From the NCBI RefSeq assembly GCF_003334355.1, contig NZ_QOWP01000009.1: a stretch of DNA of 64,000 nucleotides; one strand, written 5' to 3'. The DNA is from Escherichia coli. Lineage in GTDB: Bacteria; Pseudomonadota; Gammaproteobacteria; Enterobacterales; Enterobacteriaceae. The first letter of the stretch is position 1; each line of letters begins with the position of its first letter. Shown piece after piece: positions 34,283-37,448 of this stretch. The position numbers and the translations under genes are program-made. The notes beneath the pieces are model-generated. The model ran no database searches, was not told the DNA's origin, and was given only the letters and a program-made list of their open reading frames with translations.

Positions 34283-34290
34283 GGTTAGCG

Positions 34291-34319: not shown

Positions 34320-34604
34320 TCAGGGCAAGCCGAAGGTAGCCTTTTTTATTTCGTAATCCTGTAGATATTCTTCCAGCGGCTTTGCCGTTCCCAGAGAATG
34401 AATTTCACCACTGTCTTTATCAATAATAAAAGGTGCGTTACCAGCTAAGCGCGCGGCCTCATCTCCAGTTTCGAGAAATTCTCGTGCTTCGAAACAGAAA
34501 TACCAGCCCTGGCTAAAGCGTCCATGTAGAGTAATGACGACCGGGAGATCTGCATCATCAAGGTAATGGTTCGCTTTCGCGAATGCGTCGTGATAAGTAA
34601 TCAT
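34320..34604 (-). CDS. yrhB: Small heat-stable protein YrhB
   Basis: 94 aa ORF (MITYHDAFAKANHYLDDADL...); position matches YrhB. Confidence 0.85.
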   Translation of the reverse strand: MITYHDAFAKANHYLDDADLPVVITLHGRFSQGWYFCFEAREFLETGDEAARLAGNAPFIIDKDSGEIHSLGTAKPLEEYLQDYEIKKATFGLP

Positions 34605-35053
34605 AATTATAATAAATATTATTGTTGAGTGTTATATTATTATTCCTGTGTGATACATTGAGCAAAGACGCGTTCATCTTCGTCAAAGATATTATTAAAT
34701 GCTGGTTTTGAAAAAAGTTCATCGGATAAGATATAGTCACGAAATAAGTATCTGCTAATATTTTATGATTTCTTTTTCAGAACGTCGAACGGGATTTTCT
34801 TATTTAAGATATCAGAATCTTATGATTCGGGTAAAATTCTAAATAAATCAACATGTCATTAAAATCATCATAGCCATTAGCTATTTCGACTAAAATAGAG
34901 ACTACATGTCTTCGGTCCATCTCACTTAAGGAGTGTAGTTCCGTTGTAAGTTTTTCCATAGCTTGCACTGCTAAATTTCGAACAAGGAATTTTCTGCTGG
35001 TAATCTCTAAAAAGATGGCATGGTTTACAATGATTTTTGTTTCCTTTTGATTA

Positions 35054-35548
35054 TTATGAACAACTGTCCATGATTTCGTTTAAGAATGAAGAGAAATCAC
35101 TAAACGAACTGAATATATTTTCTGTGCCGATATTATCTCTAATTTCAAAAAAGTTACTTTTAATGTCATAAGTAAATATTGAAATGCTATCATCCCCGAT
35201 CACTAACCGTTCTTGTAGATCAGGGTTTATGAAATCATCATTATTTCTATAAAATTCATTTACGGCAAAAAGGTTTTTAACTGAAGGTTCTGGAATCGAG
35301 AGGCTAAATAATCGTAATCCATTAACTTCGAATCCATCCATTGCTCTTAAAAAAGTAAGATAATCAGGTTGATTCTTAAAAAGAATACTAACTTCATTAC
35401 ATAACTTCTCCAGGCAATTAGTTGAATTAGAATTAAATTCTATTTGGATTATACTTTCAATAAATGATTCCTTGAGCGGTGCTTCAAATGGATAGTCTAA
35501 ATCATTCATCATTTTTATTAATTTATTTATTTGGGTTTTAGTCATCAT
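35054..35548 (-). CDS. yrhA: Putative immunity protein for the YhhZ nuclease toxin (intact YrhA-like, 164 aa)
   Basis: 164 aa acidic ORF immediately downstream of yhhZ with ATGA start/stop overlap (35545..35548); AT-rich; position matches yrhA. Immunity role is inferred from the gene arrangement. Confidence 0.7.
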   Translation of the reverse strand: MMTKTQINKLIKMMNDLDYPFEAPLKESFIESIIQIEFNSNSTNCLEKLCNEVSILFKNQPDYLTFLRAMDGFEVNGLRLFSLSIPEPSVKNLFAVNEFYRNNDDFINPDLQERLVIGDDSISIFTYDIKSNFFEIRDNIGTENIFSSFSDFSSFLNEIMDSCS

Positions 35549-36723
35549 TTTGTGTGGTCCATAATATTTTTCATGGGAGGATAAATTGAGCCAGATGGAA
35601 TGGCCCAGGGAGTGATTTTGCTTTCACCTACTAATATTCCCTTAGCTATTCGTGATTGTATGTTAGTAAAAACTTTATGATATGGTTCGTTTTCGATTAA
35701 TACTAAATTTTCGAAATCATTAGTACCACCATCATCTAGAGATAGTTTATGGTGAACATTATAATTTAGAGGAACATTGCCCTTTCTCATTCTTAAAAGG
35801 TCTTCGGCGTTGAATCTTCCAGATGCTTCGGAGGTTTTTGCAAGTTTGATAAGAAAATTTTTTCTTACAGTTTTATTAAACTCCTTTCGTAAGTTAGCTA
35901 AGTCTTTTGAAGGTCTCTTAATGTATATTATTTCTATTATGTCTATACCATCAAGAAGTTTTTGTTGACCTCTAAGTTTGCCTAAGTAACTATTTATTTC
36001 TGTATATGTATCAACATTATAACGCTTTGTTAAAAGAATAGATGCTGTTGCTATCGCTATGCCCGCTGTTTTTTCATTTAGTATTTGATCATAGCCTTTT
36101 ATTGCATCTCCACCCAGTTTTTCCGCAGTATCTCTGAATCCTTCAATGTTCCCATTGTATACGCCACCAGCAGCAAGTAGCCTGCCAATAGCTTTGCTGT
36201 TTAACGTTTTGAAACGATTATTTGTTTGGTTTTTTGAATTTGGTAAAAACAAACGGTTATAATTTTCAGGGAGTGCCAAATAGCTGAACTCGGTATTTGC
36301 GATAAGATGTTGACAGAGGATAAATTCATAACTAATAGTTATTTTTTCTGTATCCAGTTGGTTTTCAATGATCTGGTGATGAATAGCCGATAAAAAAGCG
36401 CCTCTTAGTTGTATATAATAATACTTTTCCCATCTACCAAATCTATTTATTCGATAGAAGTCAAATCCCATAAATAATTGTTCATTATTGTTAATGGAAT
36501 TAATAAATAATGGAGTGCTTTTATCAATTAATTTACAAAATGTTATACCATGGAACTGTGAACCAAGCCCCGTATTATTAATATTATTTAAGAGTGAGAA
36601 TGTAAATGTTTCATCCTCATGCCCGCTCTGCCAACGATTACCTGTAGACTCAGAAGTCCCACAACCTGCGGAGATGCTTCCTTGTTGTTCTCCCGTTACT
36701 GTCAGGTAAACAATATTACTCAT
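35545..36723 (-). CDS. yhhZ: Hcp-domain protein fused to C-terminal HNH nuclease (Hcp-ET-like orphan T6SS effector)
   Basis: 392 aa ORF; N-terminal ~160 aa shows the Hcp pattern (MSNIVYLTVTGEQQGS...KLIDKSTPLF), C-terminus carries an HNH/beta-beta-alpha-Me motif (NYNVHHKLSLDDGGTNDFENLVLIENEPYH); markedly AT-rich versus flanking genes. Confidence 0.85.
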   Translation of the reverse strand: MSNIVYLTVTGEQQGSISAGCGTSESTGNRWQSGHEDETFTFSLLNNINNTGLGSQFHGITFCKLIDKSTPLFINSINNNEQLFMGFDFYRINRFGRWEKYYYIQLRGAFLSAIHHQIIENQLDTEKITISYEFILCQHLIANTEFSYLALPENYNRLFLPNSKNQTNNRFKTLNSKAIGRLLAAGGVYNGNIEGFRDTAEKLGGDAIKGYDQILNEKTAGIAIATASILLTKRYNVDTYTEINSYLGKLRGQQKLLDGIDIIEIIYIKRPSKDLANLRKEFNKTVRKNFLIKLAKTSEASGRFNAEDLLRMRKGNVPLNYNVHHKLSLDDGGTNDFENLVLIENEPYHKVFTNIQSRIAKGILVGESKITPWAIPSGSIYPPMKNIMDHTK

Positions 36724-36959
36724 CCCTGAAAAGTCCTTTTATGGCATGCTATTTTATCAATGGCACTATTATGCTTGTTAATTGTTATTTATTTACTCCA
36801 GGAAATTGTAGGCGTATATATTAAAAAATAAAATATTACACTTTAGGAAGTAATTATGAGGTAAATCTCAATATATTTATTGGGAAAATAAATACATTAA
36901 AGGAAGGTATGCCGATTTTGAATGACACCCTTTTCCCATCTCAGAAAAAGGGCACTATC

Positions 36960-37448
36960 TTACTTCACCCGCGCCATATAATACGCATCGACATATTCAC
37001 CATTACGCAATGCGTACTTCTTACCAGTCCCTTCAATTTCAAAGCCGTATTTTTTATAGACCTTAATTGCCGGGGCGTTATCGACAAACACGGTTAGTTC
37101 AATGCGATCTACCCGCAACCAGTTGTCGCACATTTCAATCATCTCTCGCATAAGGGCGCTGGCGACGCCGCGATTCTTCCAATGGGAGTCGACACAGATA
37201 CCAAAATCGGCAACATGACTGCGGCGTGGGCGCTGTTGCACGTCAATGGTGAGATGGCCCACGACGTCTCCATCAATACAGGCGACGAGTTGCTTGATGC
37301 CGGGACGATCGGCGAGTCGCTCCTGCCACATATAATCGGAAGGATGAGGCACTTGTAGCGTGTTGTAATACACCTCCGGCTGGGCGTGAATCTGCCTGAT
37401 GGCCTCGTAATCGCGCGTTTCAGCATGGCGTATCACTATCTCACTCAT
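36960..37448 (-). CDS. yhhY: GNAT-family N-acetyltransferase YhhY
   Basis: ORF track 36960..37526; start at internal Met (MSEIVIRHAETRDY..., codon complement 37446..37448) gives 162 aa; GNAT motifs. Confidence 0.85.
   Translation of the reverse strand: MSEIVIRHAETRDYEAIRQIHAQPEVYYNTLQVPHPSDYMWQERLADRPGIKQLVACIDGDVVGHLTIDVQQRPRRSHVADFGICVDSHWKNRGVASALMREMIEMCDNWLRVDRIELTVFVDNAPAIKVYKKYGFEIEGTGKKYALRNGEYVDAYYMARVK

Follow-up and report, generated by a model that had tools for sequence, protein, structure and literature searches.

A putative polymorphic Hcp-toxin locus between yhhY and ggt of Escherichia coli: the YhhZ-YrhA pair and candidate orphan immunity genes

Gene layout of the islet

In the 64-kb window, that is, the whole stretch of DNA analysed here, the gap between ggt and yhhY is occupied by an islet of 2.7 kb with a GC content of about 30%, whose edges at 34283 and 36957 were set by alignment with a genome in which the site is empty. 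GC content lies at 0.29-0.36 across 34400-37000, as against 0.50-0.60 in ggt, yhhY, and yhhX. The two main genes, yhhZ and yrhA, were taken from the ORF list and both begin with ATG; positions 35545-35548 are common to the TGA stop of the former and the ATG start of the latter, where the sequence reads ...cac aca aaATGAtgacta... (Table 1). Each has hundreds of homologues, and ORFs this long in DNA of 30% GC are far from chance. Consensus scans for promoters and terminators gave results no better than those on shuffled sequence.

[quoted passage not shown] We found no T6SS core genes within the 64-kb window; positions 354-64000 are collinear with an annotated E. coli chromosome apart from one variable PstS-like segment, and the collinear portion carries housekeeping genes only (nik, znt, fts, liv, ugp, ggt, gnt, glg, glp, and rtc).

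Table 1. Features of the islet, with positions in the window
Feature	Position	Strand	Basis or remark
AT-rich region upstream of yhhZ	36724..36957	-	left islet edge; begins right after the yhhY stop and terminator hairpin
yhhZ, Hcp-HNH fusion toxin (Hcp-ET1 type), 392 aa	35545..36723	-	ORF list; TIGR03344 Hcp1 E 2.8e-33, residues 1-147
Hcp (TssD) tube-protein domain, residues 1-147	36283..36723	-	TIGR03344, PF05638, and PDB matches
Conserved linker (pre-toxin), residues 148-233	36025..36282	-	common to all Hcp-toxin fusions at the yhhY-ggt locus
C-terminal toxin domain, residues 244-383 (~140 aa), HNH / His-Me finger DNase module	35575..35994	-	
Catalytic core VHHKL..GG.N...NL.LI....YH, residues 323-349	35677-35757	-	
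yrhA, cognate immunity gene (ETI1 type), 164 aa	35054..35548	-	ORF list; NCBIfam NF038335 YrhA family E 1.5e-36
yrhD (annotated 34804-34959, 51 aa) in a 91-codon open frame	34804..35079	-	start-less remnant of the 84-aa family
Unannotated pseudogene, remnant of the 86-aa family	34643..34801	-	tblastn 49% identity over 53 aa, E 2e-13
yrhB, orphan Imm35-family immunity gene, 94 aa	34320..34604	-	Pfam PF15567 E 4.6e-23, model positions 1-85/85

Domains of YhhZ

The N-terminal Hcp domain that had been proposed on inspection is borne out by profile searches: it matches NCBIfam TIGR03344 with 115.2 bits, above the curated cut-off of 58.9, over profile positions 1-161 of 167, and Pfam T6SS_HCP (PF05638) with an E-value of 4.3e-10. 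Matches to solved Hcp structures in the PDB span 5e-11 to 1e-8, for instance Hcp3 (3he1, 5e-11) and Hcp (6a2v, 2e-9). The linker that follows contains the block GRLLAAGG..YNGNI.GFR, which is invariant in an alignment of 14 YhhZ orthologues down to 51% identity, and its end is the point at which toxins are swapped.

The motif quoted earlier as evidence for a C-terminal HNH nuclease, NYNVHHKLSLDDGGTNDFENLVLIENEPYH, was found at residues 320-349. Its catalytic His and Asn residues, whose conservation had been left to an alignment, are invariant: H325 (general base), N339 (structural), and H349 (metal-binding), plus H324 and N335, are kept in all 14 orthologues down to 51% identity, and also in 26 distant family members with 36-45% identity. 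The Pfam HNH model PF01844 matches YhhZ itself weakly (E-value of 0.013 for the full-length protein and 0.004 for the domain alone), and across the family it reaches E<=0.001 in 13 of the 26 members and E<=0.1 in all of them. Compared with the PDB, a profile of the toxin-domain family finds HNH domains at 2e-5. The predicted structure of the toxin domain has a pLDDT of 89.4 and a ββα-metal fold, and its top structural neighbours are all ββα-Me nucleases, among them Cas8-HNH, the T6SS toxin Rhs2-CT, and colicin/pyocin DNases. Together, the invariant core, the PDB profile match, and these neighbours bear out the proposed nuclease. Elsewhere, LXG, WXG100, PT-TG, and PAAR-like proteins end in the same module, an arrangement typical of polymorphic toxins.

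The HNH domain of YhhZ has no CxxC zinc-ribbon pair, but Cys pairs are absent from colicin-type HNH DNases too. In the His-Me finger classification, YhhZ constitutes group 32 (PMC5714182), and a 2009 paper that described it as an 'evolved Hcp' with an HNH domain termed that domain 'degenerate' (PMC2907695). This label, the missing zinc-ribbon pair, and a Pfam E-value that is only marginal for the whole protein could be taken to mean that the C-terminal domain is a non-catalytic HNH fold retained for DNA binding or some other role. Nevertheless, H325, N339, and H349 are invariant family-wide, and secondary sources describe DNA degradation by Hcp-ET1, so that we consider a loss of catalysis extremely improbable.

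YrhA and the genes downstream

YrhA matches its NCBIfam family with 125.5 bits, well over the cut-off of 55. Each HNH-type Hcp fusion examined has a YrhA-family gene directly 3' of it, and none of the examined fusions of other toxin types does; this association with the HNH type only, along with the overlap of the yrhA start and the yhhZ stop, agrees with the earlier proposal of a translationally coupled candidate immunity gene. A Pfam search of YrhA itself gave no match. Among its homologues, the SUKH signal is weak, with SUKH_6 at 4.6e-4 in one of 18 and SMI1_KNR4 and SUKH_5 only above 0.01, and some of them are named SMI1/KNR4 in UniRef. The AF2 model of YrhA is of low confidence (pLDDT 50), and PDB sequence searches with YrhA and YrhB returned nothing meaningful. 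A link of yhhZ-yrhAB to methionine-to-cysteine conversion (PMC3309015) was rejected, as it reflects a name confusion with Bacillus subtilis yrhA/yrhB.

The islet had been read as a toxin gene with its immunity gene, which stands, but the orphan immunity role of yrhD and yrhB further downstream was missed. Judging from their relatives in other genera, the genes that follow yrhA appear to be an array of orphan immunity genes, fossils of earlier versions of the toxin. The frame containing yrhD is open up to 35079 and has no ATG, GTG, or TTG before 34968. With tblastn, a Salmonella 84-aa protein matches 35046-34822 in this frame with 40% identity over 75 aa (E 2e-13), whereas the annotated 51-aa YrhD gives no match to the same protein in BLASTP, the kinship being visible only when the upstream in-frame sequence is added. 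In Salmonella, a different Hcp-toxin gene, encoding 370 aa, is overlapped at its 3' end by the gene of this 84-aa family. The adjacent pseudogene has lost its start codon, is interrupted by a single in-frame stop, and breaks off after codon 55; its 86-aa relative in Citrobacter freundii lies directly 3' of a 417-aa Hcp-toxin gene.

For yrhB, identity to Citrobacter Imm35 genes is 72-74%, and at this locus in C. portucalensis the homologue (72% identical) lies immediately beside a gene for an Hcp-Gln_amidase (Tox-PL1) toxin. Zhang et al. specifically tied Imm35 to Tox-PL1 in 2012 (PMC3482391). A tblastn search found no Tox-PL1 (Gln_amidase) coding sequence in the islet, and yrhB is therefore an orphan here. 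Leftover toxin-end fragments downstream of yrhA were likewise not found with tblastn, the remnants there being of immunity genes only. In the K-12 annotation, YrhB is a 'putative heat shock chaperone' and YrhD is 'uncharacterized'.

Variation of the site across genomes and genera

In Citrobacter and Salmonella, the same yhhY-ggt site holds Hcp fusions with a matching N-terminal part of 229 residues and other toxin ends. YhhZ is 70-76% identical to these fusions up to residue 229-251 and has no similarity to them beyond. This polymorphic Hcp-toxin locus, a conserved place of toxin swapping, is common to Escherichia, Citrobacter, and Salmonella. The series of loci between ggt and yhhY offers a compact natural set for studying the exchange of toxin ends on an Hcp carrier and cross-species protection by immunity genes that have been kept.

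Within E. coli, the islet is absent from about 31% of the 5,426 complete genomes, and some genomes keep yrhB alone, and IS1 or IS5 insertions and truncated forms of yhhZ and yrhA are common in other genomes. In K-12, YhhZ (b3442) is intact and, over its 392 residues, has 5 substitutions relative to the protein studied here; YrhB shows no difference. The yrhA gene of K-12 (b3443), described in the sequence-only reading as interrupted by IS1 and intact in the present window, is indeed a pseudogene, with IS1E inserted after codon 130.

Proposed function and delivery

We consider it highly probable that the locus encodes a polymorphic T6SS effector and its immunity protein, and we infer that YhhZ is incorporated into a tube and active in this strain. 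YhhZ would form part of the Hcp tube of a T6SS whose genes lie elsewhere in the genome, or travel inside that tube, and once fired into neighbouring bacteria would kill them by degrading their DNA. YrhA, made from the overlapping downstream gene, would bind and neutralise the nuclease, both in the producing cell and in its siblings. During the evolution of the locus, the toxin end and the immunity gene would have been exchanged together, with the junction close to residue 230, older immunity genes persisting downstream as orphans (yrhB intact, yrhD without a start, and the third as a pseudogene), and these may still protect against matching toxins of related enterobacteria. The domains, catalytic residues, nuclease fold, toxin-immunity co-variation, synteny, and orphan array come from the present analysis, and the DNase toxicity, neutralisation by ETI1, and dependence on T6SS2 come from the secondary literature.

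An important question is whether the cassette still works as a weapon in this strain. It is possible, though less likely than not being so, that it is a relic here, with a toxin that is silent or undeliverable for want of a compatible T6SS and a locus kept, if at all, for immunity against relatives armed with Hcp-HNH. DNA with the 30% GC composition of the islet is usually silenced by H-NS in E. coli. The insertions and truncated genes in other genomes and the many genomes without the islet, including those with yrhB only, point the same way, as does the presence of the toxin gene in K-12, a strain that reviews describe as having no T6SS. On the other hand, yhhZ and yrhA are intact here with all catalytic residues present, full-length YhhZ orthologues with 51-73% identity are conserved in several genera, a sign of selection on the toxin, and a review places T6SS clusters in most non-laboratory E. 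coli. It may be that yhhZ is silent or decaying in many strains.

Since K-12 is described as lacking a T6SS and yet has an intact yhhZ, the gene can persist without a delivery machine. In strains of this kind, the intact Hcp-HNH protein could conceivably serve without being secreted, for instance as a latent nuclease that is set free when cells lyse or is activated by stress or phage. We regard such a role as very unlikely; if true, it would explain an intact gene at one site across genera, far from T6SS clusters. Better supported is the more modest proposal that yrhB and possibly yrhD may be working cross-immunity genes against Citrobacter and Salmonella Hcp-toxins, in which case YrhB would be a toxin inhibitor and not a heat-shock chaperone.

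The sequence-only reading had also raised the possibility of another kind of toxin-antitoxin module. Overlapping genes for a toxin and its antidote, set in AT-rich DNA at a distance from any T6SS cluster, would suit an intracellular pair acting in addiction or abortive infection independently of secretion. Nevertheless, K-12 combines an intact yhhZ with yrhA::IS1E, a natural, if indirect, counter-example to the idea that loss of the antitoxin is intolerable, and spontaneous yhhZ-yrhA deletions have been recovered in MG1655 derivatives. Moreover, the N-terminal half of YhhZ comprises an entire secretion-tube protein, and where the toxin module occurs in other proteins it is fused to secretion or trafficking domains only. 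PADLOC defence models matched none of the four proteins, which speaks against abortive infection and led us to drop an anti-phage defence reading of the locus. The toxin-antitoxin proposal is thus unsupported, and we consider it very unlikely; the T6SS effector and immunity pair remains our preferred interpretation.

Relation to known systems

Although the islet had been presented as an open case, YhhZ has already been described (PMC2907695, PMC5714182), and a near-identical copy of the pair in STEC/EAEC strains is named Hcp-ET1/ETI1 in reviews. Two reviews and a preprint list E. coli STEC004, O104:H4 C227-11, and 55989 as carriers of Hcp-ET1/ETI1 and report, after Ma et al. (2017, Virulence 8:1189), that Hcp-ET1 is an antibacterial DNase effector that depends on T6SS2 for its delivery and that ETI1 neutralises it (PMC6730261, PMC6099711, bioRxiv 10.1101/2024.03.05.583533). 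Hcp-ET1/ETI1 has the same Hcp plus HNH-DNase architecture as YhhZ, with the immunity gene immediately downstream, and the 55989 copy is at the same chromosomal locus. YhhZ is 98.5% identical to the 55989 protein from this locus (six substitutions, none in the HNH core), and YrhA is 99.4% identical to its counterpart (one substitution). Because of this identity to a protein from a strain named as an Hcp-ET1/ETI1 carrier, the core finding is already known: YhhZ/YrhA is apparently the catalogued Hcp-ET1/ETI1 pair, experimentally characterised in a published report and linked to the ggt locus through the 55989 protein. The main finding therefore changes nothing, and the by-products are annotations: yrhB and yrhD make sense as orphan immunity genes, and a third, unannotated immunity pseudogene lies between them.

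Among more distant systems, the DNases of colicins E7 and E9 and pyocins S2 and AP41 with their Im proteins, and Serratia Rhs2-CT/RhsI2, share with YhhZ-YrhA the ββα-Me core, the use as interbacterial toxins, and the linked immunity. About 80 residues of the YhhZ module superpose on these nucleases, with TM scores of 0.33-0.46 and 16-28% identity, but the module has an additional N-terminal three-stranded sheet and a helical insert, YrhA has no sequence relationship to Im7/Im9, and the toxin is delivered as an Hcp fusion, where colicins rely on translocation and Rhs toxins on a cage. Other Hcp-ET fusions join Hcp to Tle1, pyocin S3, colicin DNase, or papain-like ends. The yhhZ islet differs from other polymorphic toxin loci in that only immunity genes or their remnants, and no orphan toxin-end fragment, lie downstream. 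Nevertheless, these other Hcp-ET fusions, and Rhs and CdiA loci (PMC3482391), have the same layout as yhhZ, with a constant N-terminus, a variable toxin, an immunity gene downstream, and old immunity genes that have been kept.

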